DNA of 63,874 bases, filler included, from Craspedostauros australis (lineage: Eukaryota): NCBI GenBank assembly GCA_030167865.1. It is 4 parts of 4 records of this genome, joined end to end, with 100 filler letters (N's around TTAATTAATTAA, not from the genome) between each part and the next. Parts side by side here need not be neighbours in the genome. Positions count along the whole stretch, not along the records: positions 31,689 to 62,714 come from JALAGF010003002.1; 3 more parts are not named here. One strand, 5' to 3'. The notes beneath the pieces were generated by a model that worked only from the letters and a program-made list of their open reading frames with translations, had not been told where the DNA came from and did not search any database. Position 1 is the stretch's first letter. Each line of letters begins with the position of its first letter. Of the stretch, positions 9,401 through 61,851 are shown in pieces. A program made the translations under genes and the position numbers.

Positions 9401-10402
9401 AAAGTACAGACGCAAGTACACACAAATGCAAATGCATGGCGCCGAGTTGAGTCGTGAGTATCGGTACAGAATGATGGCAAAAACACCGACGAATGGAAAA
9501 GTGAGAGAGCGGAAGAATGAATGAGGGACAAAGATGAGCGACACGAGACCGACATCATGACGAATTGAATGGATGATGTGATGGCTTACCGAGTGCAGGA
9601 GGCAGCCGCAGCTGTGCACCTTGACGTCGAAACCATCCATGCCACAATGCTGGCAATGATTGCCAGGAACGACGGGATGAGTCGGCGGGAAGCCCAGCAT
9701 TCCATTTGAAGCAACATGCGTCATGGAGGAAAGATGACGCAGGGTGTTTGGTGACATTACTTGTGCGGTGCCAGGCGGTGGTGCGCCTGTGACAGCCGTG
9801 GCCGCATTTGGATTCATCATGGCTGCGGCTGTGACCGCGGCTGCCGCCGCCGCCGCCGCCGCTGCTGCATTGTTGAGGAGATGGGCGGCGTTGACATTGG
9901 CATGGTGCATGTTGGAGGCAATTTGTGGCGTTGGTTGCAAATGAGGCTGATGATTTGTGGTAGAGGGAACATGCATGGACTGCCCCGTCATCTGCGCATG
10001 TGCAAGTTGCTGTTGTTGTTGCTGATGGGCATGCGAGTGAGCATGAGCATTCATTTGCGGATACATCTGTGCTGGTTGCAAGTGCTGCAAGTGTTGCTGC
10101 TGTGCCATGCGAATTTGCGATTGTGGATGAGCTTGAGCCTGCGAATGAGACTGCGAGAGTTGATTGAGTTGGTGCTGGTTGTGCTGGGAATGTGGCTGGG
10201 CCTGCTGCGGCTGGGATTGCGGTGCTGGTTGCTGCTGCTGATGGTGCATTGGCGCAAAGGCGTGCAGCATATTGAGGCCGTTGTTGGCGATTCCTGACGG
10301 CTGCATCTGTAACTGCATTTGAGGTTGTGGCTGTGTCGGCGTCTCCGCCTCCGTCTTAATTTGTGTCATGAAGTTGGGCTGGGTGTGGTGGGGCGGAAGC
10401 AT
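6413..10402 (-). CDS. RING-like + Myb/SANT-like + NLP-type GAF-like protein, paralogue B (exons 10402-9590, 9321-7906, 7384-6413; start codon uncertain)
   Basis: Three long minus-strand ORFs are joined by GTAAG..CAG introns at 9589-9322 (LHS|RC) and 7905-7385 (ELTK|LMPTPKW). The spliced product is collinear with paralogue A and shares LKSKQSRLTKKMKNA, WLSSVEEMDRRASQA and FSFDVGCGLPGRVY. N- and C-termini are Q/H-rich. Confidence 0.83.
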
Positions 10403-32855: not shown

Positions 32856-34820
32856 ATGGTCTTCATCCGTCCCCCACTCGTGGCGCTCTTCGCCTCACCA
32901 ATGCGCATTCGCAACCATCAAGTCCGGACATCACTCTCCACGGTCTCACCGTCTCTCTTTCCGCTCAAGTCGACCCCTGGTGATGCACCCCCGCCAGCCA
33001 TCACTGACTATGATCTCCTGCGCGCCGCAGAACAGGGAGATGTGGACACCCTCACCGCATGGAAGATGGAATTTCCACAAACCTCCATCGACACGATCAA
33101 GGATCACCGCGACAAGACTTCACTCCACCTCGCATGCTCCAACGGCCAACTTGAAACGATCAAACAGTTGATGGAGTCATGCGGAGCGGACATCAATGCC
33201 CAATCCATGGATGGAGAGACTGCGCTACACTATGCATGCGCACAGGGCAACGTCGATGTCGTGGAATACCTGGCCGGGTCACATACTGCAGATGTCAACC
33301 TCCAGGATAACTTCGGCAAGGTGGCACTCCACGACGCATGCACCGAGGGACATGTGGCCATCGTGAAGACTCTGATCGAGTCCTATTCTGCAAGCGCTCT
33401 CGCGCAAGATGAGAAGGGTGAGAATGTTCTCCAGGCTGCGTGTCTTCATGGACACTTGGATGTCGTGGAGTACCTCGTTGGATCATGTGGAGTGGACATC
33501 AATGTGCAAGATGATTTCGGCAATACTGCGATCCACAATGCGTGTCTCAAGGGTCATCTTGATATTTTGAAGCACATCACGGAGGCTCGTTCTGTGGACA
33601 TCGACGTCCAGAACAATGATGGCGATACCGCACTTCATATTGCTTACAGAAATAGTCATTTGGATGTTGCAGAGTACCTAGTAAAGTCGTGCAAAGCAGA
33701 TGTTCATGCTGAGAATGACATTGGCGACACAGCTCTTCACTGCGCAAGTGCCGCTGATCATCTGGATGTTGTGAGATGGTTGGTGAAGTCAGGCAAGGTG
33801 AACATCAATGCCAAAGACCAGAATGGCGATACTGCCCTTCACTTCGCAAGTGCTGGAGGTCATCTGGATTTGGTGAAGCATTTGGTGGACTCAGGCAAAT
33901 CCAACATCAACCCTGAGAATCATGAGGGCGAGACTCCACTCTACAAGGCATATTGCCACAGCCACTTCGATGTTGTCAAGCATCTCATCGGAACACCAAG
34001 CATCCATCCCAACTCCCAACACAAGGATGGCAACACCGTGCTCCATCTCGCAAGTGGCGATGGCCATCTCGATGTTGTGAAGCAGCTGGTTGACTCCGGC
34101 AAGGCCAATATCAACGCTGAGAACGACAACCGTGAGACTCCAATCTTCAAGGCATATCACAACAATCACTTCGACATTGTCAAGTATCTGGCCGCAGCAC
34201 CAAATGTTGATTTGAACGTAAAAGACAAGGGTGGCGACACCATTCTCCATCTCACAAGTGGTGATGGCCGTCTCGATGTTGTGAAGCAGCTGGTTGACTC
34301 CGGCAAGGCCAATATCAACGCTGAGAACGACAACCGTGAGACTCCAATCTTCAAGGCATATCACAACAATCATTTCGACATTGTCAAGTATCTGGTCGCA
34401 GCACCTACTGTCGATTTGAACGTCAAAGACGAGGATGGCGACACCATCCTCCATCACGCAACTACCGATGGACATCTCGATGTTGTTAAGTTGTTGGTTG
34501 AACAAGGGAAGGTAGACGCCAACATCAAAACCAGCGAGTCTGGCAGCACTGCAATGCACCTTGCGAGCACAAATGGCGGACTGGAGGTCGTGAAGTATTT
34601 GGTGGAAGTCTGCAACGCAGAAATCAACATTCAAAACAACGCCGGCAGAACTCCACTTTGGCGGGCAAGTTGGAATGGTAAAATGGAGGTGGTCAAGTAC
34701 TTGGTAGAATCGTGCAACGCAGACATCAGCATCATTGGTTTCGATGGCGACACTGCACTGGATAGTGTGAAAGGAAGGGGCCTCACTGATGTTGTCGACT
34801 ACTTGGCCTCTCTTGCTTGA
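32856..34820 (+). CDS. Ankyrin-repeat protein (about 17 repeats, 654 aa)
   Basis: Repeated GxTALHxA...GHLDVVxYLV...ADIN consensus. Internal 204-nt near-identical tandem duplication at about 34024-34431. Confidence 0.93.
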   Translation: MVFIRPPLVALFASPMRIRNHQVRTSLSTVSPSLFPLKSTPGDAPPPAITDYDLLRAAEQGDVDTLTAWKMEFPQTSIDTIKDHRDKTSLHLACSNGQLETIKQLMESCGADINAQSMDGETALHYACAQGNVDVVEYLAGSHTADVNLQDNFGKVALHDACTEGHVAIVKTLIESYSASALAQDEKGENVLQAACLHGHLDVVEYLVGSCGVDINVQDDFGNTAIHNACLKGHLDILKHITEARSVDIDVQNNDGDTALHIAYRNSHLDVAEYLVKSCKADVHAENDIGDTALHCASAADHLDVVRWLVKSGKVNINAKDQNGDTALHFASAGGHLDLVKHLVDSGKSNINPENHEGETPLYKAYCHSHFDVVKHLIGTPSIHPNSQHKDGNTVLHLASGDGHLDVVKQLVDSGKANINAENDNRETPIFKAYHNNHFDIVKYLAAAPNVDLNVKDKGGDTILHLTSGDGRLDVVKQLVDSGKANINAENDNRETPIFKAYHNNHFDIVKYLVAAPTVDLNVKDEDGDTILHHATTDGHLDVVKLLVEQGKVDANIKTSESGSTAMHLASTNGGLEVVKYLVEVCNAEINIQNNAGRTPLWRASWNGKMEVVKYLVESCNADISIIGFDGDTALDSVKGRGLTDVVDYLASLA

Positions 34821-35248: not shown

Positions 35249-36598
35249 TCAACGTGCTTTCTTCTGCACACCCATCTCCTCATCGGCGTCAGCCTCAGAA
35301 CCTTCATTCTCTTCGTCCTGGTTCAGCTTGTTCATTGCGGCAGTCTCCATGCGAAGGGCAGACTCGAAGACGGCGGCATCCTCGTCGTTGCTGCAGGCGT
35401 CAATCTCCTCGCGGAGTCCCTTGATGTTCGACAGGATGCGCTCGCGGCGGACGGAGTAAGACTCACTCTCTGTGGCGAGAGCCTTCTGGAGCTCGAGGTA
35501 TTCCTTTGGAACGGCGGTGGAACCGGCCTCATCCACAAGCACGTTGGTTCCCAAGTGCATGTTGCGGTTGCTCTGGTGGTCTGGCTTCATGCCGGCGGCG
35601 CGCTCCTCTGGGGTGCCAATGTACACCTCATCGAGCTGGAAGCCAGAGACGGCCTTGTGAATGGAGGCAAGGACCCAGGCTCCGGAGCAGATACCAGTGA
35701 CTTCCAACAACAGACAGAACTGAAGGAAGATGTAGACAATTGGGTTGGAAAGGAAGGCGATTGGGAAGACGGACGCGACCAGCTGCCATGTGATAGAGGT
35801 GCTGATGAGGGCTCCGAGAAGTCCGGTGTTGAAGAATTCCTGGGTGCTGTCGGAGACTCCGAAGATGTTCTCGCCAGTTCCGACTTCGACAGCAAGAGTG
35901 GTGACACAGGCGATGATGAAGAAGTACATGGACACGCAGATCTGACGTCCGATCATGAATCCTGGAAGGTTGCGTCCGTCACCGCGGAAGAGGAGCTCGC
36001 AGGTCTTGCGGGCCATTGGGTGGTCTCCACAATCCTCCTTTGGAAGCTTGGCGACGGCGAAGAAGGCGATCAGCATACCCTCGAGCATACCGACGATGGC
36101 CATGAAGAGGGCGACCAGGGTGACGGCCATGGCGTAGCACAGGATGGCGAGGGAGATGAGGGTGCGGCCCCAGTCGAAGAGGTTTTGGGCACCGTCGCGT
36201 GGTGGTTCCTTCGACTCGATTTCCTTGCCAGAGGCCCAGACGAAGAACATCTGGATGAGGTAGCACGAGTGCAGAAGTCCGGAGAACTCGATGGCGAGGG
36301 CGACGTAGACGGCGAAGAAGTTGTTGATGTAGTCAAGCATGCACAGGGAGGCGTTGACTTGGGAGTTGAGCTGTCCGGCTTGGGCGGTCATGAGGATCAT
36401 GGCGGCTCCGGATCCGAGGAAGATCTGGATGATGATATCTGGGAGTCCGAAGACCTCGGCATCGGCGAGTGGGGCACCGCACTGGTTGATGGTGAAGATC
36501 ATGAGGAGGACCATGGACTGATGTCCCATGAGGTAGCGGTGGACTGGTGGGAGACCGACGAGGGCACCCTGTCCTCGATGGTGTCAGCATCAGTTCAT
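35249..36598 (-). pseudogene. SIT: Silicon transporter (SIT) pseudogene with multiple internal deletions and damaged GXQ motifs
   Basis: SIT motifs GQLNSQVNAS..MLDYINN, IEFSGLLH, LEGMxIAFFAVAK, GFMIGRQ and a C-terminal coiled coil are present. The N-terminal TM region is missing: the remnant GQGALVGLPPV is fused to RYLMG behind an in-frame TGA. GRQ is changed to GHQ, GMQ to GML, and the segment before MAIVG is deleted. Confidence 0.88.
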
Positions 36599-38081
36599 CG
36601 TGTTGGGTGCCGGAGACACCAATGCCTGAATGCATGAATGGATGAAACGGCGATCATGAGGACTCCATTTTTGCCTTGATCGGTTGTTATTCATCGCCTC
36701 GTTGATGGAAGAAGGTGGTGCCTGCCAGCGCTTCAGTGCGGACAGCGGCGCGACGATCATGATTGATGCTGATGTGGACTGTTGTGCAGATTTGAGAGTT
36801 GTTGTGTTGGACGGTGTTGGATGGTGTTGCGATGGGATGTGCTCTCGTTACTGCGCTCTCACTTGATAGAGGAGGACAGCACCGCGGTTGGTGGATGTGG
36901 ATCCTTCTGTTCTTCGAGTTCGCACATCCCAACACCACTTTTTCTGTGAGAACATCACCAACGAGAATCTCCGACTAGTATGACTATGACCGTTGCAGTT
37001 GCTGAACGATCTTTCTGGCGCCAAAAGAAACACAAAGAACCTGATCGATCACATTGTTTGACACAGTTGATTCGAACTGTTCGTTCTACGTTTTCATTGG
37101 TCCAGCTTGTGTTCTCTCTTGTCTCACCTCATCACAGTGTTGTGTGTCGAGATGTGCCCAGTCCCACCAAATCTGTGTATCACGAACATCTTTAGCTTCT
37201 TTTGTGGGAACTCCGAATCCAACTCCCGCCGAAAAAAGAGATCTTTGAGAATCAACTCACACAACAAGAACAACAACAAGAACGACATCAAGAGAGAGGC
37301 CAAGTGATGGAGGGAACACCAAGATGGACGATGATCGCAATTGCAATCACAATCATTGCGAACCATGAGGCATCCCACGAGAAGCTCAATCGGCGGCATG
37401 CTTCGTTGAGTACCGAAGTGGAATGGTGCGCGATGGGTTGAACGATCGTGTTCCCAACAACTTTGGCCAGCGAGTCACCCACGCTTCTGATGATGATGAT
37501 GGAGGGATGAGGATGACTCCCACTTCCGCTTGCCAATACTCCATCACTCCAGCACTCATGTTGTGCCGATGCATCGGTCGTGGTTGAAGAACAGTGAGCA
37601 CTCCACATGACACATGACCCATGACAACGAAGAAGGAGAAGCGACAGTCTCCACACTCACATCTCTCACACCCCTCACACCAGCACGTCTGCAACTCAAT
37701 GCACACTCACAGTTATCAGACGCTTCATCATCGTCACTGCTGCTGCTGCTGACGATGGCATCCCACCCTTGCGGCCAACGATGCCATCACCGTGCTTCAC
37801 TTTTCCAAACAAGATGCATTCCGTGGGACCTCCTGTGAGAAACCTACTCCTTCCTACTCGTACGAGCACAGCCATGAATGCGCACGGTGGTGGCTATCGC
37901 GATATCTCCAACATCATCGCATTATTGCGCCATGAGGCCTGCAACAGACAGCAGACACCGAGAAGAAGCGCTGCAAATCTCCACCCTCTCTCCAACCTCT
38001 CATAAAACTAAATCAGCCACAAACTGACACTTCCAGCAACTAAAGCAGCAACTAAAACAGCAACCAAAGCAACACCCAAAC

Positions 38082-39420: not shown

Positions 39421-41148
39421 TCAACCGCGTGCGTCGTTATGCTTGGTGTTATGTGTTGTGTGCACGTGCATGTGTCGAATCAAGCACTCCATTATCTCTT
39501 CCTCGCCATCTTCATACGCGGCATGGAGCAACGTGTATCCATCTTCATTGGACATGGTCAAATCGTGATTCTCGTTGCCGTTGGCTTCGTTCAAGCGAAG
39601 CAGACGATCCAACAGTCCTTCATTGCCGGCGCTGCAAGCTTCCTGAATTGGTGCGTAGTCTTCGTCCGGGAGCCGGGGGTTGAGATTGATCTCGACACCG
39701 TTTGCTTGGCTGAAGTCAAGGAGACAGTCGGCCACATCTGTGTCACCATGCAAGAAGGCATGCTGAAGTGCCGTACTATCGTTCATATCTCGGGTGTTGA
39801 TCATGGCATGCGCATTGCCTTGGAAGCGGCATGATCGGAGCAACAGCTGCACCACCTCCTTATAACCATATTTACAAGCGTAATGGAGCGGGGTTTGCTC
39901 GTCGCAGTCCTGGATGTTGAAATCGATAATGGGGTCGTCACTGGTACTTGTGCGACAGAATTCGATGAAACGTTCCACTACATCCGCTTCGCCGTACTCA
40001 CAGGCATGATGCAGTGGCGTGCAGCCATGGTAGCTGTTTCGGATGTTGAAATTGATTGCCGCATAGCTGTTGGCTCGACTGAAGTCAAGAAGATCGCCGG
40101 CGATATCTGCGTCACCATTGATGCAGGCGTAGTGAAGCAGTGTTTGCCCATCCTCCTTGTCTTGAACGTTGAGGTCGATGCAGACTTCGTTGGCTTGGAT
40201 GAATTCAAGCAAGCACCTCACTCCGCCCACGTCACCATGGGCGCAAGCATGATGAAGTGCCGTTTTGTTGGACGAGTCTTGGGCGTTGATGATGGCATGT
40301 GCGTTGCCGTGGATACGAGCGGATCGAAGCAAGATCTTCACTACACCATGGTGGCCTTGTGTGCAAGCATAGTGAAGGGGAGTTAGGTTGTGACAGTCTT
40401 GAACGGTGAAATCAACTTTGAGACTATCACTAACACTGTCACTGTCACCGATACGACTGAAGTCAACGAAGTGTTCCACCACATCTGAATAACCATTCTC
40501 ACATGCATAGTGGAGAGGTGTGCGGCCATGGCCTTTGTTTCGAATGTTGACATCGATGTTGACGTTGCAGTTGGTGCGACCGAAATGAAGAAGGCATTGC
40601 ACCACGTCTGCATCGCCATTAATGCAAGCGCGATGGAGAGGGGCGTGCCCATCATTCTTTTCTGGAGTATTGAGATCGATGGTTGTGTGTTTATTGGTTG
40701 AGCAGAAGCGCAGGAGGCATCGTACCACAGCTGCGTGGCCATGTATGCAAGCAACATTGAGTGGAGTGTCCCCGCGCTTGGATCGAATGTTAACATCAAT
40801 GTTGGTACTTCCGTTGACGCGTCCGAAGTCTAGCAGGCGTTGCACCACATCCGCGTGGCCATTCAGGCAGGCATAGTGAAGTGCCGTTTGCCCGATGCGC
40901 TTGTCTTGAGTGTTGAGGTAAATCTCAATGCTCTCGCTGCCATGGTTGTCAGTTTGAAAGGAGTTGAGGAGGCACTCTACCACATCTGCATGACCATTCT
41001 CACAAGCACAATGGAGCGGTGTTTGCCCTGCGGCATTCTGGGCCATCAGCTTCGTCACGTCTCCATTCTCTTGCGCCGACACCAAATAGCGGACTTTTTC
41101 CAAATCGCCGGACTTGCATGCACGATGGAGCGGCGTCTCTCTCTTCAT
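39421..41148 (-). CDS. Ankyrin-repeat protein with long (about 42-aa) repeats (575 aa; start uncertain)
   Basis: Repeated TPLHxAC..GHADVVxCLL.F.....IDxN units. Confidence 0.88.
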   Translation of the reverse strand: MKRETPLHRACKSGDLEKVRYLVSAQENGDVTKLMAQNAAGQTPLHCACENGHADVVECLLNSFQTDNHGSESIEIYLNTQDKRIGQTALHYACLNGHADVVQRLLDFGRVNGSTNIDVNIRSKRGDTPLNVACIHGHAAVVRCLLRFCSTNKHTTIDLNTPEKNDGHAPLHRACINGDADVVQCLLHFGRTNCNVNIDVNIRNKGHGRTPLHYACENGYSDVVEHFVDFSRIGDSDSVSDSLKVDFTVQDCHNLTPLHYACTQGHHGVVKILLRSARIHGNAHAIINAQDSSNKTALHHACAHGDVGGVRCLLEFIQANEVCIDLNVQDKEDGQTLLHYACINGDADIAGDLLDFSRANSYAAINFNIRNSYHGCTPLHHACEYGEADVVERFIEFCRTSTSDDPIIDFNIQDCDEQTPLHYACKYGYKEVVQLLLRSCRFQGNAHAMINTRDMNDSTALQHAFLHGDTDVADCLLDFSQANGVEINLNPRLPDEDYAPIQEACSAGNEGLLDRLLRLNEANGNENHDLTMSNEDGYTLLHAAYEDGEEEIMECLIRHMHVHTTHNTKHNDARG

Positions 41149-42851: not shown

Positions 42852-44975
42852 TCACTCCTCTTCTTCAGCAGCAGCAGCAGCAGCATCGGCCCCAGTCACC
42901 CTGGAAGGTGTGACGGACCGCACGAGGTTCACCAACGTTGCACGATCCATGTATGAATCCACTTGCGCAGGACCCTCGTTTTCATCCACGATCTTGTACA
43001 AATCCATCATGGACATGGCACTGTACTTGTCATCAACTTCATTGCTTGCTGCTCCCCCACTGCAGACGGCATGGATCTCCCCCGGCAGTTGAGGGTGTTG
43101 AAACAACTTGCTGCAATCTTCACGAGCGAGTAAAGTCTGCATGTTTCGAGCTGCCATCCTCATCGACGCATCTTTCAACAGTAAACAGCCGTGCTGATTG
43201 GCGAATATCAACGCATCTACCATGGTGTCCTCTGTGAGATGAGTGCGGGCCAACTCTGCTTCAAGAACAAGCTTGAGTCGCCAGAAGCCAAACTCGTTGG
43301 CCACAAGGATCAGCTGTTGTAGATCGTCCTGTCCATTGGCGGTGGGAGTTGGCCGGTCAGAGCCATCATCATCGTCATGAACGCCATCGCGGGTATCAGT
43401 ATCGTTGTCCGGAGCGCTGTGATCGAAGGATATCTCACCTGTGTAGATGCATTCGAGGACACGTTGAACGTATTTGGGTTGAAGGTTGGGGAGAGGGATG
43501 AGCCTGCGGGGTGGAGCAGTGACAGAATCAGTGCCGTCATCAGTGCCGTCATCGACATGCTGATGTTGGATTCCCGAGTCGATCAATGTCTGAATGGACG
43601 GAACAGTGACCATGAGGAGTCCGGAGTTTGCTTTGATTGGCTGTTGTTCGTCGCCTTGTCCGCACAGGAAGGTGATATCTGCCTTGGTCTCAGAACGAAC
43701 AGCGCTGCGACGATCTTGGCCGATGCTGATGTTGGTTGTTGTGTGGATTTTAGGATTGTCGTGCTTGGTTGGTGTTGTGATGGTGTTTGTGTGTCTTTGC
43801 TTGCGCACCTGCGTCTCTGTTTGCAGCTGTGTCTGCGGTTGCAAGTTGCGACGACTGAGATGACCGAGACGCTTCATGATTGATGTCATCATCCTGACCT
43901 GATCTTTTGCTTTGATTAGTTCGACGGGTGTTTTGTTGTCGTTGTTTTGGATGTCGATATTGACCTTGGTTGATTCGATGAGGTACTTCACACACTCCAG
44001 GCGGCCGTTGGCGCATGCTCGATGAAGTGGAGTGTCGCCATTGTTGTCTTTGCAGTTGACATCGGCGTTGGCTGATTCGATGAGGTACTTCACACACTCC
44101 AGGTGGCCCCAGACGCATGCATAGTGAAGTGGAGTGTAGCCATCGTTGTTCTTGCAGTTGACATCGGCGTTGCATGTTTCGATGAGGTACTTCACACATT
44201 CCAGGCGGCCGTTGAGGCATGCTTTATGAAGTGGAGTGTCACCATTGTTGGCTTTGCAGTTGGCATCGGCGTTGGTTGATTCGACGAGGTACTTCACACA
44301 TTCCAGCTGGCCGTTGTAGCATACCCCATGAAGTGGAGTGTCGCCATCGTTGGTTTTGCAGTTGACATCGGCGTTGGTTGATTCGATGAGGTACTTCACA
44401 CATTCCAGGCTGCCGTTGAAGCATGCACGGTGAAGCGGAGTGTAGCCACCTTTGTTCTTGCAGTTGACATCGGCGTTGCATGTTTCGATGAGGTACTTCA
44501 CACATTCCAGGTGGCCGGTGGCGCATGCTCGATGAAGTGGAGTGTCGCCATCGTTGTCTTTGCAGTTGACATCGGCGTTGGTTGATTCGACGAGGTACTT
44601 CACACATTCCAGCTGGCCGTTGTAGCATGCCCCATGAAGTGGAGTATCGCCATGGTTGTCTTTGCAGTTGACATCGGCGTTGGCTGATTCGATGAGGTAC
44701 TTCACACATTCCAGGCTGCCCAAGTAGCATGCCCTATGAAGTGGAGTGTTGCCATTGTTGTTCTTGCGGTTGACATCGGCGTTGCATGTTTCGATGAGGT
44801 ATTCGACACATTCAAAATGGCCCCAGGAGCATGCCTTATGAAGTGGAGTGTCGCCATGGTTATCTTTGACCTTGCTGACATCACGTCCTTCGTTCTGCTC
44901 CTTCCATTCCCTCAACACTGACAGATCACCTGCAATAGCAGCTTCAAGGAGTTGTTCGTCTGAGACATTCGGCAT
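42852..44975 (-). CDS. Ankyrin (9 highly similar repeats) + BTB/POZ + BACK-like protein with a short C-terminal helical module (707 aa)
   Basis: Start MPNVSDEQLLEAA. Nine repeats of the form GDTPLHxACxxGxLECVKYLIExxNADVN. BTB signature ADITFLC..IKAN..LL..; VLECIYTG; LILVANEFG..LKLVLEAEL; ALIFA..GCLLLKDA. Confidence 0.92.
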   Translation of the reverse strand: MPNVSDEQLLEAAIAGDLSVLREWKEQNEGRDVSKVKDNHGDTPLHKACSWGHFECVEYLIETCNADVNRKNNNGNTPLHRACYLGSLECVKYLIESANADVNCKDNHGDTPLHGACYNGQLECVKYLVESTNADVNCKDNDGDTPLHRACATGHLECVKYLIETCNADVNCKNKGGYTPLHRACFNGSLECVKYLIESTNADVNCKTNDGDTPLHGVCYNGQLECVKYLVESTNADANCKANNGDTPLHKACLNGRLECVKYLIETCNADVNCKNNDGYTPLHYACVWGHLECVKYLIESANADVNCKDNNGDTPLHRACANGRLECVKYLIESTKVNIDIQNNDNKTPVELIKAKDQVRMMTSIMKRLGHLSRRNLQPQTQLQTETQVRKQRHTNTITTPTKHDNPKIHTTTNISIGQDRRSAVRSETKADITFLCGQGDEQQPIKANSGLLMVTVPSIQTLIDSGIQHQHVDDGTDDGTDSVTAPPRRLIPLPNLQPKYVQRVLECIYTGEISFDHSAPDNDTDTRDGVHDDDDGSDRPTPTANGQDDLQQLILVANEFGFWRLKLVLEAELARTHLTEDTMVDALIFANQHGCLLLKDASMRMAARNMQTLLAREDCSKLFQHPQLPGEIHAVCSGGAASNEVDDKYSAMSMMDLYKIVDENEGPAQVDSYMDRATLVNLVRSVTPSRVTGADAAAAAAEEEE

Positions 44976-45435
44976 GTTGGTCGTTGGTTGTTGAGCTGTT
45001 GGTAGACAAACAATTGCTGGATGATTGCTCAATGTGTTCACGGTACGAGTCGGTCTTATGATGACGATGCTGACTGATGGTATGAGACCAAACTGCTGCA
45101 AGGAATAGCAAGGTTGTCGTTGTCTTGTTCGCACGTTCTGTTTCTCTGTTCCATGATCGCACTCTGGTTTGGCACGAGATCCTTCTTGACATCAACCACA
45201 AAACACACGCACACAAACAACACGAAAGAAACACGAAGAAGGAATTCGTGCGATCGAACTCGGTTTTCTGTAGTCCATTGAGTCATTCGACAGAACCAAC
45301 GTGTGCCAAACTGTGCCAAACTGTGCGTGCCTCCAACGGCGTGACTGTTAGCGCGAGCGAATTGGTCGCCGTGATGGCTTTTCCATCACGCTCGTTTCCC
45401 CAGTCGTACACTTCCAACAGAACACCACATGCACC

Positions 45436-46750: not shown

Positions 46751-47454
46751 TGACACGTTGGCTTCCCATGGCCGCTACTGTTAGAACGAAATCGAAGATG
46801 GGATTCCGCACCGAAACGTAGAGTGATCAGATCGTTGTTGGGGTGAGGATGAGTGTTTGTATTAGAATGTTATTCGTATGAGTGGTAGGAATGCTTTCGA
46901 GCTCACAAGATTGTATTCTTGGAACTGTGAGCATGAGAGAGACATGACATGGTCTCATGCAATTACAAGTGAAATTAACACGGAGACAACACGACAAATG
47001 TGCGTGTTACTGCGTGAAGAAGAGTTGCAAAAGTCAATGAACAAAAACACCATGGTACCCCGTGTTGTGAATTACGTCTTCTCATGATGTTGCTAGTAGT
47101 ACGATCACACGATTGATTGTATTCACTTGAGAAGGTTGCGGTAAGATTCGCACGTGTCGCACCCAAGACCTAAGTCTGTCCTGATTGGGCAGAGAGGTTC
47201 ATCTTGGCAAGAAATCAATTTCCGCGACATTTTGGATCTGTGATTGACGGGAAAACGGTTCTTGCGACGCGAAATGTGACACAGATTTGACACAACGGAT
47301 TGTCGACCAAAATATCCGTTCGGAACGGAAAAGGTAAGAAAAGTGGAGATTTCTGATTGGTCGACGGGTGTCGCTATTGTTAGAGATTTAGCGTTGCGCT
47401 GATAGCTACTACAGTGTTCCGCTTTGCTCCTCTTTCCCTTTCTTGGCACCAGTC

Positions 47455-47900
47455 TCAGCTGTCCACAGGATGACTTGGTGGGGTGCAGAAAATCACCAAC
47501 ATGCCGTGATGAATGTACAAATCAACTTTCCCAGTGCCCTCATCTTCATCCATGACCTTGCACAACTCCATCATGGACATTGCAATGCACACATCATCAA
47601 ATCTGTTGCTCATTGTTCCACCACAAAAAGAGGGCATGAACGCCTCCCATCAGCTGAGGCTTCTGACAAAACTTGCTGGAATCTCTGTGGGTAAACAACA
47701 AATGTATGTCTTCAGCGACCATCCTCATTGTCGCTTGCCATTCACGCTTGTGGAATGAAGTGGAGTGCAACCCCAGCTGCTTTTCATCTTGTTGGCATCA
47801 CTTCTTCCATTCTCCTTCTTCCATTTCTTCACTGCTGACAGATTGCCCATGCTGGCAGCAGCAAAGATTTGCTTGTTTGCAACATCTGGAATGTTGAGAT
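47455..47900 (-). pseudogene. Collapsed pseudogene of the ankyrin-BTB gene (N-cap and C-terminal module only)
   Basis: PDVANKQIFAAASMGNLSAVKKWKKE..GCTPLH matches the N-terminus of the 42852-44975 protein. DDVCIAMSMMELCKVMDEDEG..VDLYIHHGMLV matches its C-terminus (DDKYSAMSMMDLYKIVDENEG..VDSYMDRATLV). Confidence 0.8.
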
Positions 47901-48679
47901 GATGGTCAATAGCTGTTGAGGGGTTGCTGGACGGGTGTTGGATGATTGGATGATTGTTTGAATGGTTGGATGTTGTATGGTGCCTCTTGGCATGGTACAA
48001 GCATGGACTCATACCATTCACGGCTCGTCGAGGAGAACCGTCAGTGTGGAATGCAGATCCTCGTCATGTCCAGGTCTGAGTTGTGCGAAGTGTTGGGTAC
48101 GAACGAAACGAAATGAGATGGAACGAAGTGGAATAGAGGAAGAGGTGCCGATCTGGACATGTTGAGAAAAGGGTATCCATGACTGGGAGGACCACCAAAG
48201 TTGACGGAACGTGGGTGTGACACGTGTGGAAGAACAAGGAATGCACACCATTCTTTGTTGACAACACACTAGTCGCAGTCAAGCTAGAAGTATGCGAACA
48301 AATCGGAATCCAAACACGGAAATGACCAACACGAAGATCAACCACAAACACGCACATCTCTGGCAGAACACAACATCAACATCAACAGATCCGCACACCA
48401 CAAACCATTTACATTGATTCCACCCGGACCCGTCACCAAGTCAAAACCATTCATACTGGCATAGCATCTACAATAGTTCGTATAAAACCGTACGATACAT
48501 ACATACGAAGAGAGAGGACTCGACCTTCTCGATACCCATATTTGTACATCGCACAGTCGCAGCTGTCCAAGCCTCAACTCAACAACAAAGAGCAGATCGT
48601 TGCGAGTACGGATCGCCGTCAACGCAGCATGGATCTCCCCTTCCCACGATCTTTCAACTTACCGAGCTACTCACTTCCG

Positions 48680-49120: not shown

Positions 49121-51191
49121 ATGAATTTGGATTGGAAACAGTGATGACATCAATGACAGATGGCTTGTGCGATTGTACAAAGCATGTAATAGGAACGACT
49201 TGGCATCGGTGCAGGCCTTGGTCGAATCATGCGAGGAGGGCACACTTTGTGATATTGTGCACGAAGTTAGAGATACACCACTCCATCGTGCTTCCTATCA
49301 TGGAAACATGGCCATTGTGAAGTCCTTGGTGGAGTCTGATCGAATCAAGGTGGATGTCAACCTCCAGGATCGCTTTGGAATGACAGCAATCCATTGTGCT
49401 TGTGAAAATGGACACACGGCTATCGTGAAGTATCTGATGGAATCTGACCGCGTTCATGTGGATTTCAACATTCCAGACAGGGATGGCAATACTCCAATTC
49501 ACATTGCGTCCGAGCATGGATACAGAGATACCATTGAGTACTTCATGCAATCTGATCAAAGCAATGTGGATGTCAATGCCCGAAACAAAGAAGGGCAGAC
49601 ATTGCTCCATCTCGCTTGCAGGAGCGGAAAGAGAGATCTTGTTGAGTACTTGATGGAATCTGATCGAATCCACTTCATCATGGATGATACCGATGGCAAC
49701 AGCTTACTCCACCATGCCTGCAAAAAAGGTCGGATCGATGTGCTGAAGTACTTGGTGCAATGTCTCCAAGTTGATGCCGCTGCCAACATCAACAAGCAGA
49801 ACAACAAAGGTGACACGCCTTTGTATGCAGCATGTGAGGAGATGGAGATCAGCTGCGTTCGATACCTGGTGGAATCAGATGATATCAGTGACAATGTCAA
49901 TCTCAACATTCGCAACAGCGATGGTGATACACTTCTCCACCTGGTTTGTTACACAGGCTGGCGTGGTTCTGAGGATATGATTGCGTATCTGGTCCAGTGT
50001 GACAAAATTGACACAGACAACCACATTCGCACCCAAAACAATGACGGTGACACACCATTGCATCGCCTTTGCTATTACGGTAGCCGTCGCTTCTTACCTT
50101 GCTTGAAGCTGTTGCTGGAAGAGTACCAACCCAACAATGACAACAATGAAGACAACAGCAACAGCGAGTTGAGTATCGATGAAATATTCAAGATTCAAAA
50201 CAGCCACGGGAACACACCTCTCCATTTTGCATGCAAGCATCAGAAACGCGACGCCATTGAATACCTGCTCAAGTCGTCCAAGATCAACAGCAGTTTCAAC
50301 ATCCAGAACCATGACGGTGACACACCTCTCCATGTTGCTTGCGAGCATCAGGAACGCGACGTCATTGAGTCCATGCTCCAGTCGTCGAAGACCAACAGCA
50401 GCTCCTACATCCAGAACCATGATGGTGACACACCTGTGCACCTCGCCTTCCGCAGAGGTCGTTTCGTCCTGTTGGATGATACCACCAGACTCACCCACCT
50501 CTTCGAATTCATCCAACACCAACTCATCCCCACCACCAACCTCAGCGATCTCTCCCATCTCAACAATCGTGTAGGAGATACAGTCATCACCAAACGATTG
50601 ATAGAAGAGGCCAAACCAATTGCAAACATCCAGAATCGTGCTGGGAACACGCTTCTACATCTTGCATGCATGAACAAGGACAGTGAAATGTCCATCCTTC
50701 AGCAGTTGGTGGGACATGACTCAGTAGACGCAACGCTTCAGAATAGTGATGGTAAAACTCCGTTGCATTGCATCTGCTGCGCCGACACTGGTACCGGAAG
50801 CGATACCGGAAGTGATGTCGGAAGCGACGCCAACGACCGTGATGACTGTCTGGAGAAGATCAAGCTGCTGATTGAATCGAGCAACGTGACGGTGGATGTG
50901 AACATGATGAACAATGGCGGAGACACAGTCCTTCACTGTGCGGTCAAGAATGACCTGGTGACAGTGGTCGAGTATCTGATGATGTTGGAAGAGATCGATG
51001 TTCATGTGCAAAACAAAGCTGGCAATACGGCATTGGAGTGTGCACAGGAGGCAACCCATGATGCGAAGATCTTGGATTTGCTTGAATCGAGGCTGGCTCA
51101 CCATCCCACCGCGAAGAGGGATCGGCCGCCCTGCAGTCCCGACATGTCTATGGAAGGTGAGATAGAGACAAAGACAAAACGGCAATGGTAA
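49121..51191 (+). CDS. Ankyrin-repeat protein (about 680 aa); the ATG at 49121 is one base out of frame with the main ORF
   Basis: ORF 49167-51191 has many NIQNxxGDTPLHxAC repeats. The frame is open back to 49125 and is preceded by TGA. Confidence 0.85.
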
Positions 51192-57371: not shown

Positions 57372-60300
57372 TCAGCTGCTGCGCATGCGATTCATCATCT
57401 CGGTCACCTGATTGACCGTCTTCATCTTCAACGCGTACGCATCACGCTCCAATTCGAAGTAGAATTCGAACCCATTCAGCCTCTCATCTTGGTTGGCCTC
57501 CCGCCATGACTTCCCTTGCTGCACGAAGAACCGTCTGCCGCGCAGTGCGCGACGGATGGCCTTGTAGATTGGTGGGGACCATGGTGTCTTGAAGAAATCC
57601 GGCATGATTCGCTCCACAACTTCCACAAGGCTTTTCGTACCGGGGTGGTCTGGAAGAGTTCGTTGGCATCAGTGTGGTGAATGTGGTGAATGTGATCAAC
57701 GGTGGTGCATGTTGATGCGTGTTTGGGCGCAACCAACGAGGGCGAGGACGCAACGATCACGAGTTGGGTCATCAGTGCAGAGCATGGATGTTAGTACGAA
57801 CATTGCTGTCACAACAGGACTCCTGTAGAGTAGAGTGAATCGTTCAACTCGACTGCGCTTCACTTCACTGTGCTGCGCAACCCGCAGAAGCAGAGCTTTG
57901 GGAATGCCATACAAGCATGGCACAATGAGTACACCATTGCTGCACTTACCGTCACTGTGAAAACAAACATCCTTCGAATGAGGATGTTTCATGGACTTGA
58001 TGGCAGTGGTGTTTTCCGTGCGCACCAAACCATCGTCATTGTATGGTTTGTGACTGGTCTTCTTCGCTTTTTCTTTCGTCCTCTTTTTTCTTGTGCTGTT
58101 GCTACTTGCTTGGCCATCAGTGCCATTGCTCACAACCAGCGCACGGCTTTCATTATCGAACGTGCCGCCGTTGTCTTCGCTGACGACGAGTGCACGGTTA
58201 TCGTCGTCGTGAGCTTTGCCGACGCTGTGACTGACAGTGAGCGCACGGCTGTCATCATCGTATGCTCCTTCACCGTCCTCACTAACAACGAGAGCACGGC
58301 TGTCTTCATCGTATGCTCCTTCACCGTCCTCGCTAACAACGAGGGCACGGCTGTCTTCATCGTATGCTCTGTCACCGTCCTCGTTCACAACGAGGGCACG
58401 GCTGTCATCATCGTATGCTCTGTCGACGCTGTCGCTCGCCACAAGAGCGCGACTACCGTCGCCATCGTCTTCGCTGGGAACCAGGGCACGGCTATGATCG
58501 CCTCGATCGTCTGTGTCTTCGCTCAGCACGATTGCTCGAATATCATAATCATTGTCGCTGCTGCTTTCGTCGTCATCTTCGGCGAGAACGAGTGCGTTGC
58601 TGACCGTTGTGGCTGCACCCTCGCCGATGGTGCCATCGTCATGGACGGCAAGGGCGCTCTCGGTGTTGCGAGACGCGTTCTTCTTTTGCTTGAACCTTGC
58701 ACCGGCGGTACCTCTCTTGCCAACGCCATTTTTGGTGGCTCCATTCGCGACGTGGTTGGCAGCATCGCCCGCAGCAGCACTTTTTGCTGCTTTCTTCATC
58801 TTTGATGACGATGAAGGTCTTGGCCCAGGTACGTTGGATGTCGCGGATGCTTCGGCACGTCGTTTTGCCTTCTTGATTTCAAGCTTGTACGAAATGCGCT
58901 GCTCTTCGAAGAGCTTTCCGAAGTAATCCACGCGCTCTGTCTGGGTGGCGTCCCTCCACGCGCCATCGTCAATGTCCCAGATGAAGAAGCGGCGGCCTTG
59001 CAACTTCGCCTTGACAGCCCTGTACACTTTTGGTGACCATGGCGTGTCCACGTGCGTGACCAGAACCGATTTTATGGCCCGACGCAACGCCAGATTGCCT
59101 GGATGCGCTTCCTTGTGCAAGCAGATGTCGTACCTGGACGGGTCGTCATCCGACAGCATTTCATCCATGTCATCTGCAGCATCATAGGAATGCACGGACA
59201 TCGCAAGGTCCCAGTTATCGCGCGCCTTTTCGCGCAATTGTTCCCACTCATTCACATCTCCAGCGTCCCAGTCACCGCCGGCCTTCTTTGCCGACTTTCT
59301 CTTTTTCGTTGCCTGGGGCATGCGCTTCTTGTACAGTTCTTTCTCCTGATCGAAGTACTGGCCGATATTCTCGATCCGCTCCACCTTGGTGGCCTCTCTC
59401 CATGGCGAATCTTCCTTCTTGATCAGGAAACGGCGCTCTCGCGATTTCCGACGGATCGCCTTGTACACGGGCGGACAGTACGCAAAGGTTTCAAATTGCT
59501 TCAGGCATTTTTGAACGATCTCGACGAACTCCTTCGTGCCTGGATGGTACGGATCGGAGAAGCAGATGTCCTCATCTCGTGGATTGATGCCCCGGTAGGG
59601 ATCATCGGAATAGTCATTGTCGCGGTCATCTGGTGCGGCGGACGGGACGGGCAGCGGATGGCCGTCCTCCACCGGCCGCAAACCTGCCGGTTCATCGAAG
59701 GTGCGCTGTGTGATCACAACCTGCTCGAATTCGCTGAGCTGTTCACGGATCAATTCATGATTCTCCAGCAGGTCCACGCAGTACGGGAGCAACGCTTCCA
59801 CCATGTTGGGTCGGAACGGCATCGTGGTGTTTTGCACGCCCGCAACGCAATGCTCGCACGTGAATCCTTCTGCCATCTGTCGCGCCAGGAAGACGCCGAG
59901 GCGCGTTTGTGAGAATTCCAACGTGACGTTGCCGATGATGCTGCCGAAGTCATCCGGTGACAAATCACCCAAGAAGACCGCCCATTCGATGGAGTCCAGC
60001 TTGTTCGCGACCACGTCGAAGTCATTGACGGCGCCGGACATTTCATTGAGCAATCCGACCAAGGTCGGTTCGTTGCTGTCGCAGAAGACGCCGTTTCTGT
60101 ACGTCTGGTCCACGTTCTCGATCTTGTGCGCCTTGTGGCTTTGCTTCGGCTCCGACAGCGGCATTTGGACAGCGTCATCTTCGACTACCCTCGGCAGTGC
60201 TGGCATGGTGGGCAACGATGGTATCGACGACAGCGGGAGGCTGCGTTGACCGCTGACGCGTCTGGAATGCCCGATTTTGATTGGAATTTGCGTCGATGGA

Positions 60301-61851
60301 TTGCCGTCCGTGGACATGGTGATTAACGTGACGCGGAGGAAGTGCGACACCTTGACCTTGAGTCCGGTGAAGCTGTCCAACGCGACGGTTGGGACGATCA
60401 TGGAAACCCGGTTCTCCTTGGCCATCAGATCGACGTAGATGGCGTATCCTGTTGCCTCCTTGTGTTCCGTGGTGTCCAGATCGACGATCTTCCAATGCTC
60501 CACGGATTTGCGATGCAGGCCAGGTACGTTGACATCCTCGAGCACGCTGATCACCTCCTCGCCGGAGTCATCGCCCTGTTCTTGCGCGTTCCATTGCACC
60601 TCCTGAAGGAGCTTGATCTCGACACGTTCCACCGGTACAGTGGCCTCGTTCCTGCATGCTAGGTACATGTTGATGGCCTCGCCGCGCCCGACCTGCGTGT
60701 TCTCGATGCGCGCACCCACCGAGAAGAAACCGCGTCCGATGATGCCAAACTTGTCCACCTTGATGGGCTGCGGTTGGTAGAGACATGGGACCTTCGCGTC
60801 GCCAAGGTGCTTGGATCCCACGAAGAAAGTTCGTTTGTTGGCGAATTCCCGCTTGGGATCCGTCTTTAACTTGAGAGTGTATTCGATCTCATATCCGGAG
60901 CTGTTGTTTGTGTACCCGCTCGTGGATGGGAGCGATGCGGGGAGCAAGACTTCGAACGGGAAGACGTAGATGCCCTCATTGACACCGCCATCCTCCTGCA
61001 CCTTGTCGAAAGTTGGAAGCTGGATGCTTTTGCGGAAGAAGCAGATCTTGTCGGACCTATCGTATTGCATTGCGTTGAATTGCGTTGCATTGCATTTCGC
61101 GTCATCGCATAGCGTGGCGTGACGTGGTGTGTTGAGTAGTGTACGAGGTTGGATATAGAATAGAACAATAGCAAAGAGCATGAGTTGGAAGAGAAAGCGA
61201 ACGTGAGAGAGGGATCATGGGAGATGAATTGGACTTTGTTTTTGTGTTTGCGGTTGCGCTCGCACTTGGGCATACCATCGCATCTGTGACGTACCAAACG
61301 GAATCATCGTCGCTGTCGTCTGCGTTGGCTGTTGTCTTCTCCTTGCCTTCGATGACCAGAGCAACCTTCGGTGGCACGAGTGGCTTGTTGACCTTGAAGA
61401 CGACTCTGCCGCAGAGTAGGTTGCCCGCGATGATGGCTGCAATTACAAACAGAGGAGTTGAATATCGCATGCATATCGCATTCACATTTTATGTATGCAT
61501 ATCGTACGAGCATGCATGTGCGATCGCGATTGAAACATGAACAGATGATGAGTGTGAGATCGATGAGCGGAGAGCGGGGGGGGCGATGGAATGAAGCGCA
61601 AGAAGTGAAGCACAGTCGAGCATACCCATAGAGAATTGCAGAGAGGGCAGGCCGAAGTGGTGAAGCAATCTAACGCTCACGGATCAGTCCGTTGCACGGC
61701 AGCGCGTCACATCCTGTTGCTGCCAACCCAACAACCCTTCTCCCTGTCAATTCATGACAGCCTCCAAAGCACCTCTCTTTTCCTCCTCACCTTTGTAATG
61801 CCCCTCATCTTCGTGCTCCAGCACGATGTTCGGAGAGATCGAGTTCCCCAT
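57372..61851 (-). CDS. Arrestin-like protein with MGxxxS leader, three DUF6824-like domains and acidic 17-aa repeats (exons 61851-61791, 61436-61295, 61056-57950, 57649-57372)
   Basis: All three GT-AG junctions are phase-compatible (HYK|A, SV|W, HSD|D). Arrestin-N motifs G.YVFPFEVLLPASLPST..IEYTLK and arrestin-C motif SFTG..VKVSHFLRV..IPIKI. Three DxC..HPG..Y.A....RRF.....WR.A modules. Confidence 0.85.
58130..58500 (-). repeat. Coding minisatellite, 51-nt unit (YDEDSRALVVSEDGEGA), about 7 copies
   Basis: CACGGCTGTC recurs at 58244, 58295, 58346 and 58397, a period of 51. Confidence 0.9.

Follow-up and report, generated by a model that had tools for sequence, protein, structure and literature searches.

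The window analyzed here is a stretch of 63,874 nucleotides of DNA, filler included, from the diatom Craspedostauros australis (GenBank assembly GCA_030167865.1), in which positions 31,689 to 62,714 come from JALAGF010003002.1. On its minus strand, the ATG at position 44975 opens a single open reading frame (ORF) of 707 residues that contains an array of ankyrin repeats, as seen in the ORF list and the translation. The features of this gene, with the data that delimit them, are as follows.

42852..44975, minus strand: complete coding sequence (707 codons and a stop codon), in one open frame with no intron needed
44865..44975, minus strand: N-terminal capping helices, residues 1-37 (AF2 helices at 6-15 and 18-27)
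43947..44864, minus strand: nine 34-residue ankyrin repeats, residues 38-343 (TRF, Pfam Ank, AF2)
43851..43946, minus strand: degenerate C-terminal capping repeat, residues 344-375, a tenth "TPVE" unit
43734..43850, minus strand: low-complexity linker, residues 376-414, with abundant Thr, Gln, and basic side chains (translation)
43230..43733, minus strand: BTB domain, residues 415-582 (Pfam, family profile, AF2, Foldseek)
43056..43229, minus strand: 3-box/BACK helical extension, residues 583-640 (profile alignment, AF2 helices)
42855..43055, minus strand: C-terminal helical motif and Ala/Glu tail, residues 641-707 (family consensus, AF2 helices)

Two proteins, P0021 and P0122, are full-length relatives that align with the product of this gene from the first residues through the C-terminus. 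The N-terminal capping segment is conserved in both of them and in the neighboring ankyrin gene, and the C-terminal capping repeat, where AF2 confidence is low, is also conserved in both. The BTB domain carries two acidic loop insertions, at about residues 476-490 and 513-546, and a 12-nt micro-duplication detected by TRF at 43527-43553 falls within the first of these. The C-terminal motif, which is conserved in the family, is predicted by AF2 to form helices at residues 257-266, 279-289, and 297-307 of the C-terminal half, and no Pfam family matched it at E values up to 10. A SAP domain, which occupies this place in the MATH-BTB relative P0146, was considered for the motif and discarded, as it gave no Pfam match in the same range of E values. 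Because the 707-codon frame is intact, the repeats differ from one another by 6 to 28%, and the flanking domains are conserved in the relatives, we reject the possibility that the gene is a pseudogene or an assembly artifact.

An exhaustive protein search returned 95 proteins at E values of ≤1e-3, including 21 at ≤1e-10. Among 24 relatives scanned with Pfam, 7 had both Ank and BTB above the cutoffs, all of them close relatives, and 6 had MATH or MATH_2 together with BTB above the cutoffs; a BTB match with an E value of ≤0.01 was seen in all 24. A word-based search using the complete protein sequence passed 7324 of the 8000 candidates that it scored, mostly generic ankyrin proteins, and P0021 was the only full-length one among the 120 matches listed. 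When an alignment with full-length rows served as the query, the search was contaminated by the ankyrin columns, and a metagenome scan with the family alignment gave 119 pattern matches, none of which was confirmed by tblastn. The window contains a cluster of four ankyrin genes and two remnants of the family.

47450..48063, minus strand: decayed paralogue, with tblastn pieces matching residues 1-46 and 603-637
36672..36869, minus strand: pseudogene fragment of the linker and the start of the BTB domain, 45% identical in tblastn to residues 384-449, with an in-frame stop

The decayed paralogue retains the N-terminal cap and the first TPLH, followed by the end of BACK and the C-terminal motif, in three different frames; its array and BTB core are deleted, and its stop-to-stop ORFs are spread over three frames.

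The sequence-only reading of this locus had described nine near-identical 102-nt repeats, and all the helix-1 and turn strings that it listed are indeed found in the translation. TRF counts 8.9 copies of a 102-nt unit at positions 43966-44868, with no indels (score of 1174), pairwise nucleotide identity between repeats is 72 to 94%, and Pfam Ank recognizes nine stretches (E value of 7e-96; 309 bits versus a cutoff of 21.1), with 344 bits for Ank_2. The AF2 model of the array (mean pLDDT of 86.4; one of five models confident) shows regular helix pairs every 34 residues, and the scaffold is Cys-rich, with cysteines at positions 12, 19, and 33. Thus, the 102-nt repeats stand, with the amendments that the module has 34 residues rather than 33 and that the duplicated block comprises three repeats. 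A block of three repeats occurs three times in the array: TRF also resolves this span into 3.0 copies with a period of 306 nt (score of 1405). Because this longer period has 88% matches versus 84% for the 102-nt one, and the mean repeat identity is 72% here versus 34 to 64% in the seven Ank-BTB relatives, the three-repeat block was recently amplified to nine. Over its best 100 residues, the array is 86% identical to itself when shifted by 102 residues. In repeat 5, helix 2 ends in the manner of a different repeat type, and the three-repeat unit and mosaic repeat types together suggest an array diversified by recombination.

Of three public sequencing runs, only X1 contained part of the stretch (0.36 of the words sampled), and no RNA run is listed as containing it. 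X1 yielded 467 short contigs, of which 130 are at least 99% alike, 148 are 95 to 99% alike, and 189 are 90 to 95% alike; because X1 is possibly the source sample itself, it does not count as independent support. None of the X1 contigs spans the array, the short sides of their joints measure 22 to 30 letters, and the skipped lengths are never multiples of 102.

Across repeats 1 to 8, 12 of the 34 codons are invariant, 6 show synonymous variation only, and 16 have amino acid changes. The eight most variable positions of the repeat are 13, 3, 10, 16, 1, 14, 27, and 5, four of which (3, 5, 13, and 14) are among the DARPin-randomized positions 2, 3, 5, 13, and 14 (hypergeometric P = 0.007), in a register derived from alignments to solved DARPins in the PDB. 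The proposed DARPin-like pattern therefore holds only in part. Four of the six randomized positions vary, whereas position 2 and position 34, the counterpart of DARPin position 33, hardly change; positions 1, 10, 16, and 27, constant in DARPins, are variable in this array. In the AF2 secondary structure, sites 1, 3, and 5 lie in the beta-turn and helix 1 covers repeat positions 7 to 13/14, which places sites 10, 13, and 14 on one face of that helix. Judged by this secondary structure, the variable sites do map to the binding face, as had been anticipated: they comprise residues of the beta-turn, of a single face of the inner helix, and of the turn that links the two helices. Published work places the ankyrin binding interface in that region (PMC4986451).

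For one gene with nine repeats and five codons of interest, and with a single tree assumed though exchange between the repeats is likely, a maximum likelihood codon model gives an omega of 3.70 at positions 2, 3, 5, 13, and 14, the DARPin positions chosen a priori, versus 0.65 elsewhere. The likelihood ratio statistic against an omega of 1 at these five positions is 10.0 (P = 0.0016), a value attained in 4 of 500 replicates of a null bootstrap. This result is robust to changing the tree and to trimming: omega is 3.73 with the by-type tree, 4.35 (P = 0.0014) for repeats 2 to 8 only, and 2.70 (P = 0.008) when position 34 is included with the five. Counted by parsimony, nonsynonymous changes number 2.02 per site at the five positions, and synonymous changes across the entire repeat number 0.76 per site (P = 0.001); this count test loses its significance (P = 0.085) once the baseline is limited to the synonymous sites of the same five codons. 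As a control, the same analysis of the neighboring ankyrin gene, with seven duplicated repeats, yields an omega of 0.82 (P = 0.62). Exchange between repeats shifts several nucleotides together and can inflate the apparent nonsynonymous rate. The excess of nonsynonymous change at the variable sites, on which the sequence-only reading had staked its case, is thus present, with an omega of 3.7 and an omega of 1 rejected. Since nonsynonymous change outpaces synonymous change at the binding face, the recognition surface appears to be under diversifying selection.

The fusion of the array to a BTB domain is borne out by the family profile and the fold, which specify the SPOP type of BTB-BACK. With the protein alone, Pfam BTB (PF00651) scores 20.2 bits, just under the cutoff of 20.5, which the seven close Ank-BTB relatives clear with 24 to 34 bits, and BACK_BPM_SPOP scores 17.3 bits, below its cutoff of 27.4. 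The BTB assignment is nevertheless confirmed, because profile and fold agree. A 22-sequence family profile matches human SPOP over BTB plus BACK with an E value of 5.3e-27, reaching SPOP residue 354, and also matches the BTB domains of BTBD6, KEAP1, and KLHL11. The AF2 model of residues 400-707 has a mean pLDDT of 82.4, low over its first 20 residues (the linker), and a pTM of 0.78, with the BACK-region helices at residues 186-239 of the C-terminal half. [quoted passage not shown] Sequence profile and modeled structure both assign the C-terminal half to the SPOP type of BTB-BACK domain.

The predicted Cul3 contact is conserved in some of its elements. In SPOP and KLHL11, a hydrophobic residue of the alpha3-beta4 loop, Met233 and Phe130, respectively, inserts into Cul3; two positions further on, KLHL11 Glu132 forms a hydrogen bond with Cul3 helix H2, and the 3-box/BACK region confers high-affinity Cul3 binding in both proteins (PMC3597819). 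Ile469 of the present protein, in the motif DSGIQHQ, aligns with SPOP Met233. The equivalent of Glu132 is His, and this position is not conserved across the family (H, N, D, T, or P); the contact loop bears an extra acidic insertion, where model confidence is low. A complex prediction for two copies of BTB-BACK scored 0.00 versus a mark of 0.32 and was not used either way.

Near-identical repeats that vary at the binding face, joined to a SPOP-like BTB-BACK part, indicate that this protein is probably a ubiquitin-ligase adaptor whose target surface evolves fast. We place it in the SPOP/BPM group of BTB-BACK proteins, as a representative from the diatom lineage, most likely a Cul3 adaptor with a diversifying ankyrin recognition surface. 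Its N-terminal ankyrin array takes the place of the MATH substrate-binding domain that is usual in this group. By homology, the BTB-BACK part would dock on Cul3 of a Cullin-3 RING ligase, and the ankyrin groove may hold a target that would then be ubiquitinated. After the amplification from three to nine repeats, the scaffold stayed near constant, and residues of the beta-turn and inner helix (positions 3, 5, 13, and 14, along with 1, 10, and 16) changed faster than synonymous sites, a diversification of the surface that was probably aided by exchange between repeats. The architecture, the fold, the history of the repeats, and the nonsynonymous excess are observed in the data, and docking on Cul3, ubiquitination of targets, and what those targets are belong to the inferred part of the model.

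A possible, if somewhat doubtful, alternative is that the gene encodes an ordinary lineage-specific adaptor, whose array was expanded by recent tandem duplication and whose omega above 1 is an artifact of inter-repeat exchange, multinucleotide changes, or relaxed constraint on exposed positions. Tandem duplication within ankyrin arrays is common in the window, where TRF also finds a 204-nt unit in 3.4 copies at 33812-34501 and a 108-nt unit in 2.1 copies at 50212-50435. The same positions vary in ankyrin repeats generally, the foreign-type end of helix 2 in repeat 5 suggests exchange, and the within-codon count test falls short of significance in a very small data set. However, relaxed constraint would be expected to bring omega to about 1, not 3.7, and an omega of 1 is rejected in four variants of the test (P = 0.0014 to 0.008); the bootstrap and the neighboring duplicated array, with its omega below 1, weigh in the same direction. 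In addition, conserved codons with identical synonymous states are interspersed among the variable ones every one to three codons, and conversion tracts alone are therefore an unlikely source of the pattern of variation. The further proposal of the sequence-only reading, that this is an immune or allorecognition receptor whose hypervariable surface binds viral, bacterial, oomycete, or conspecific non-self and sends it to Cul3-dependent ubiquitination, we regard as unlikely. Selection at the binding-face positions is in keeping with it, as are the local birth and death of the family in the window (two decayed copies and the four-ankyrin-gene cluster) and the precedent of the F-box and MATH-BTB adaptors of Caenorhabditis elegans (PMC4334554, citing Thomas 2006). 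The comparison that it drew with fungal NLR repeats is apt in kind: high internal conservation has been defined there as >85% identity over at least 100 repeat residues (PMC4986451), a threshold that the 86% observed here just reaches. Against a dedicated receptor, Pfam detects no NOD, TIR, death-fold, or other signaling domain, and diversification of recognition surfaces is also known in reproduction or in conflict with selfish elements. No diatom study tying Ank-BTB proteins to defense was found in the literature searched.

It is quite unlikely that the BTB-BACK part is an oligomerization or scaffold module that does not recruit Cul3, as in a transcriptional coregulator resembling NPR1 or BOP, with the array binding partners. 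NPR1, a plant BTB-ankyrin immune regulator, turns up in the fold search at rank 40 (7mk3; E value of 6e-5), and the nonconserved acidic residue of the Cul3 contact and the insertion in its loop are both compatible with such a role, as is the lack of a single canonical arrangement among BTB-ankyrin proteins (PMC1257465). But it is SPOP, not NPR1, that tops the sequence and fold matches, the domain order is opposite to that of NPR1, the Cul3-inserting hydrophobic residue is kept, and the 3-box/BACK region is present; moreover, the BTB-ankyrin proteins of Schizosaccharomyces pombe bind the Cul3 homologue Pcu3p (PMC1257465). A Cul3 adaptor with a diversifying ankyrin surface is accordingly the reading that we prefer.

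The molecular basis on which diatoms recognize viruses, parasites, or one another is very poorly understood. The parts of this gene have precedents when taken singly: adaptors with a BTB domain, arrays of ankyrin repeats, and diversifying selection acting on repeats that are almost identical. The literature searched gave no example of all of them joined on a SPOP-type adaptor in a diatom. The gene turns the idea of diversifying recognition into a concrete and testable hypothesis, in terms of array polymorphism, binding targets, and induction under biotic challenge. As an ankyrin scaffold, the array is of natural origin, close to consensus, and probably very stable, and the positions at which it varies in nature go beyond the DARPin set. 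As a speculative extension, to which we assign only a slim chance, this Cul3 adaptor with its concertedly evolving hypervariable array could represent a diatom system of non-self recognition inside the cell that works by degradation and without NLRs. If so, the array would be a germline-encoded library of binders, in which repeat duplication and shuffling create new specificities, and the targets, viral, bacterial, or oomycete proteins or determinants of mating or allorecognition, would be ubiquitinated once bound; the repeat logic of fungal NLRs and the adaptor logic of nematode MATH-BTB proteins would then meet in one gene. Should the selection signal prove to be an artifact of exchange between repeats, the gene would encode a lineage-specific adaptor of the ordinary kind, whose array expanded recently.

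Each of the known systems resembles this protein in some respects only. NPR1 shares the presence of BTB and ankyrin repeats and the weak fold match but differs in its reverse domain order, in a match far weaker than that of SPOP, and in having no array of high internal identity. The ankyrin repeats of fungal NLRs, such as Podospora Pa_3_8560 (Dyrka et al. 2014, PMC4986451), are likewise near-identical, with variation and positive selection at the concave face; the array structure seen here suggests concerted evolution, as described for them, and polymorphism in repeat number has been shown in the Podospora repeats (PMC4986451). However, no NACHT or NB-ARC domain is found in the present protein by Pfam at E values up to 1, which excludes it from the NLRs: its array is joined to a BTB-BACK part in place of a nucleotide-binding domain, and the host is a diatom, not a fungus.

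Among ubiquitin-ligase adaptors, the expanded families of F-box and MATH-BTB proteins of C. elegans are described as having positively selected substrate-binding domains and a conserved cullin-binding part, and have been proposed to degrade foreign proteins (PMC4334554, citing Thomas 2006). Their diversity lies between many paralogues with MATH or F-box-associated domains, whereas here it lies between tandem repeats of one gene. Btb1p to Btb3p of S. pombe and proteins of the ABTB type (Stogios et al. 2005, PMC1257465) also combine ankyrin repeats with BTB, and those of S. pombe bind Pcu3p, but a near-identical array is described for none of them. DARPins share the consensus-like scaffold, four of the repeats matching a DARPin with an E value of 6e-155, and positions 3, 5, 13, and 14 also differ between DARPin repeats in solved structures; in contrast to DARPins, the natural array has a 34-residue module, with one extra residue at the end of helix 2, and a Cys-rich scaffold. 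MATH-BTB families are expanded in grasses (PMC4091423). The SPOP/BPM MATH-BTB adaptors have the same subtype of BTB and 3-box/BACK by profile and fold, with the substrate-binding domain N-terminal to BTB, and the distant relatives of the present family are MATH-BTB proteins. What sets the diatom protein apart from these adaptors is the presence of nine ankyrin repeats in place of MATH, two acidic insertions in the BTB domain, and an extra C-terminal helical motif.

The Ank-BTB-BACK gene of the diatom Craspedostauros australis and its repeat array are located as follows.

42852-45134, minus strand: open frame holding the gene (ORF list)
43947-44864, minus strand: nine 34-residue ankyrin repeats, residues 38-343 of the product (protein-level repeat table)

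Translation from the ATG at 44975, a start supported by the N-termini of full-length relatives, which align there, yields a protein of 707 residues (P0001). Tandem Repeats Finder reports a 102-nt unit in 8.9 copies at 43966-44868, with 84% matches and no indels, and, over the same span, a 306-nt unit in 3.0 copies with 88% matches and a higher score. The repeats, numbered along the protein, belong to three types (1/4/7, 2/5/8, and 3/6/9), and thus a three-repeat block has been amplified threefold. Repeats 3 and 6 are the most alike (94% nucleotide identity), followed by 4 and 7 (91%), and repeats 1 and 9, at the ends of the array, are the most divergent (72 to 84%). Capping helices lie N-terminal to the array, and a tenth, degenerate unit lies C-terminal to it. 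The nine near-identical 102-nt repeats described in the sequence-only reading are therefore borne out by both Tandem Repeats Finder and the repeat table, and all helix-1 and turn strings quoted there are found in the translated repeats. The scaffold at 43947-44864 (minus strand) is unusually rich in cysteine (28 of 306 residues, counted from the repeat table), with Cys at repeat positions 12, 19, and 33 and, in type-A repeats, also 27; Cys12 is common to relatives.

The C-terminal half scores marginally against the Pfam BTB domain (20.2 bits; cutoff, 20.5) and low against BACK_BPM_SPOP (17.3 bits; cutoff, 27.4) because of two acidic insertions in the BTB loops, at both of which the confidence of the structure model is also low. 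An exhaustive search with residues 400-707 retrieved 95 proteins at E≤1e-3, 21 of them at E≤1e-10; the relatives with a named source are C. australis proteins, which, together with the silicon-transporter gene in the window, marks the organism as a diatom. All 24 relatives included in a Pfam scan have a BTB match at E≤0.01; 7 of these, all close, combine Ank with BTB above the Pfam cutoffs, and 6 combine MATH or MATH_2 with BTB above the cutoffs. A 22-sequence profile matches human SPOP across BTB and BACK with an E value of 5.3e-27. The AlphaFold2 model of this half, built from the same alignment (mean pLDDT, 82.4; pTM, 0.78), has full-length SPOP chains as its top PDB matches in Foldseek (probability, 1.00; query-normalized TM, ~0.5), with a target-normalized TM of 0.81 for the SPOP BTB crystal structure, whereas NPR1 first appears at rank 40. 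The profile and the fold matches together confirm that the array is fused to a BTB domain. The protein ends in a 67-residue helical motif, which is kept across the family and matched no Pfam family.

The gene belongs to a cluster of four ankyrin genes at about 32.9-51.2 kb, interspersed with other features.

32856-34820, plus strand: ankyrin-only gene, 654 residues, 15 repeats of exactly 34 residues each in unbroken register
35249-36583, minus strand: silicon-transporter gene (Pfam match, E 6e-160)
36672-36869, minus strand: decayed Ank-BTB fragment with an in-frame stop
39421-41148, minus strand: ankyrin-only gene of the cluster
47450-48063, minus strand: decayed Ank-BTB copy, array and BTB core deleted, remnants in three frames
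49308-51191, plus strand: ankyrin-only gene of the cluster, with a 108-nt tandem unit in 2.1 copies at 50212-50435

The two decayed copies nearby indicate local gene birth and death in the Ank-BTB family, and tandemly duplicated ankyrin units are also found in two other genes of the cluster. The gene at 32856-34820, which carries a 204-nt (two-repeat) tandem unit in 3.4 copies, resembles P0001 in its N-cap and is devoid of a BTB domain. The silicon-transporter match starts at position 101 of the 513-position Pfam profile, the open frame ends at 36583, and the fragment at 36672-36869 lies directly upstream, at the expected site of the missing N-terminal part; this gene has either an intron or a 5' truncation. 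Further genes in the window include the following.

3403-5541 (plus strand), 6413-7492 (minus strand), and 7768-9558 (minus strand): two large paralogous ORFs with a third ORF between them
57696-61181, minus strand: 1,161-residue ORF with an arrestin C-terminal domain (E 4e-11)

The two paralogues, in opposite orientation, have long conserved stretches in common, each with a weak, below-cutoff Pfam match to bHLH-MYC_N, and the third ORF shares its C-terminal part with them. The arrestin-domain ORF also contains a 51/102-nt tandem repeat (58128-58436), which is translated into a repeated acidic peptide rich in Ser and Val.

Mean repeat-to-repeat identity in P0001 is 72% (maximum, 88%). Among the 7 Ank-BTB relatives with at least two scorable repeats (an eighth, P0128, had too few), it is 34 to 64%; as their repeats are fewer and dissimilar, P0001 acquired its near-identical array recently. 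Within repeats 1 to 8, 16 codons differ in the amino acid encoded, 6 show synonymous variation only, and 12 do not vary at all; variability is highest at positions 13, 3, 10, 16, 1, 14, 27, and 5, in descending order. Alignment to solved DARPins, which set the register, shows that positions 2, 3, 5, 13, and 14, as well as the residue preceding Asp1, differ between DARPin repeats. Four of these are among the eight most variable positions here (hypergeometric P = 0.007). Positions 2 (Asn) and 34 (Lys) are nearly constant, each with the same residue in 8 of 9 repeats, whereas positions 1, 10, 16, and 27 vary, unlike in DARPins, so the proposed DARPin-like variation holds for positions 3, 5, 13, and 14 and the analogy is partial. 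Residues 1-380 were modeled with AlphaFold2 from the single sequence (mean pLDDT, 86.4; only one of five models confident). Helix 1 spans repeat positions 7-13/14 and helix 2 spans 17-26/27, which places sites 1, 3, and 5 in the turn, 10, 13, and 14 on one inner-helix face, and 16 in the inter-helix turn. Mapped in this way, as the sequence-only reading had suggested, the variable sites of the modeled array fall in the turn/inner-helix region reported as the ankyrin binding interface (PMC4986451).

For repeats 1 to 8, Nei-Gojobori estimates at the five DARPin-randomized positions (2, 3, 5, 13, and 14), taken as the a priori set, are 0.38 for pN and 0.14 for pS, and at the 26 least variable positions 0.058 and 0.139, respectively. 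Parsimony on the maximum-likelihood tree counts 26 nonsynonymous changes versus 1 synonymous change at the five positions; per site, this is 2.02 nonsynonymous changes versus 0.76 synonymous changes over the whole repeat (P = 0.001), or P = 0.085 with the five codons' own synonymous sites as the baseline. A maximum-likelihood codon model, in which synonymous branch lengths are shared and these positions have an omega of their own, gave omega of 3.70 there versus 0.65 elsewhere (likelihood ratio statistic against omega = 1, 10.0; P = 0.0016). Its main caveat is inter-repeat exchange, which breaks the assumption of a single tree and shifts several nucleotides together. The estimate was 3.73 (P = 0.0014) on a tree grouping repeats by type, 4.35 (P = 0.0014) without repeats 1 and 9, and 2.70 (P = 0.008) with position 34 added; the observed statistic was reached by 4 of 500 replicates simulated under the fitted null model (parametric bootstrap). 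As a control, for seven recently duplicated repeats of the neighboring gene at 32856-34820, the same model gave omega of 0.82 (P = 0.62). The variable sites thus show the excess of nonsynonymous change that the sequence-only reading had called for. Repeat 5, whose helix-2 end is typical of a different repeat type, hints at inter-repeat exchange; however, codons conserved even synonymously interleave with the variable ones every one to three codons, which speaks against conversion alone as the source of the signal.

P0001 is therefore probably a SPOP-type BTB-BACK adaptor with a high-internal-conservation ankyrin array under diversifying selection; the earlier interpretation is partly supported, in that the BTB-BACK fusion and the selection signal stand and the likeness to DARPins is partial. 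If it works as its homologue SPOP does, its BTB-BACK part would dock onto Cullin-3 and its N-terminal domain would grip the substrate. A hydrophobic residue of the α3-β4 loop is reported to insert into Cul3 (Met233 in SPOP, Phe130 in KLHL11; PMC3597819). Its counterpart here is Ile469, in a motif conserved in the family; the acidic residue at +2 is not conserved and the loop has an insertion, so that, judging by sequence, Cul3 binding is plausible. A perfect 12-nt micro-duplication (2.2 copies at 43527-43553, minus strand) encodes DDGTDDGTD inside this loop, the Cul3-contacting one in SPOP and KLHL11.

The literature searched contained no account of this family or of diatom arrays of this kind. 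Binding to the Cul3 homologue has been reported for BTB-ankyrin proteins of Schizosaccharomyces pombe (PMC1257465), and in nematodes, adaptor families whose substrate-binding domains are under positive selection have been proposed to serve in detecting foreign proteins (PMC4334554, citing Thomas 2006); by analogy with these precedents, an immune or allorecognition role is a reasonable, though speculative, hypothesis. Among the matches listed, the highest-ranking generic ones to the array are near-identical ankyrin arrays too, with mean repeat identities of 0.80 (P0017), 0.68 (P0008), 0.76 (P0002), and 0.69 (P0005); P0017 and P0005 carry a Roc-type GTPase, P0002 carries NB-ARC, and P0008 carries neither. 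Such arrays on signaling proteins may be widespread beyond fungi. With a best 100-residue self-identity of 86%, the array of P0001 lies just above the high-internal-conservation threshold reported for fungal NLRs (>85% identity over at least 100 residues; PMC4986451). SPOP-type BTB-BACK adaptors and high-internal-conservation ankyrin arrays are each of a known kind, and no example of the two combined in a diatom came up in the literature searched.
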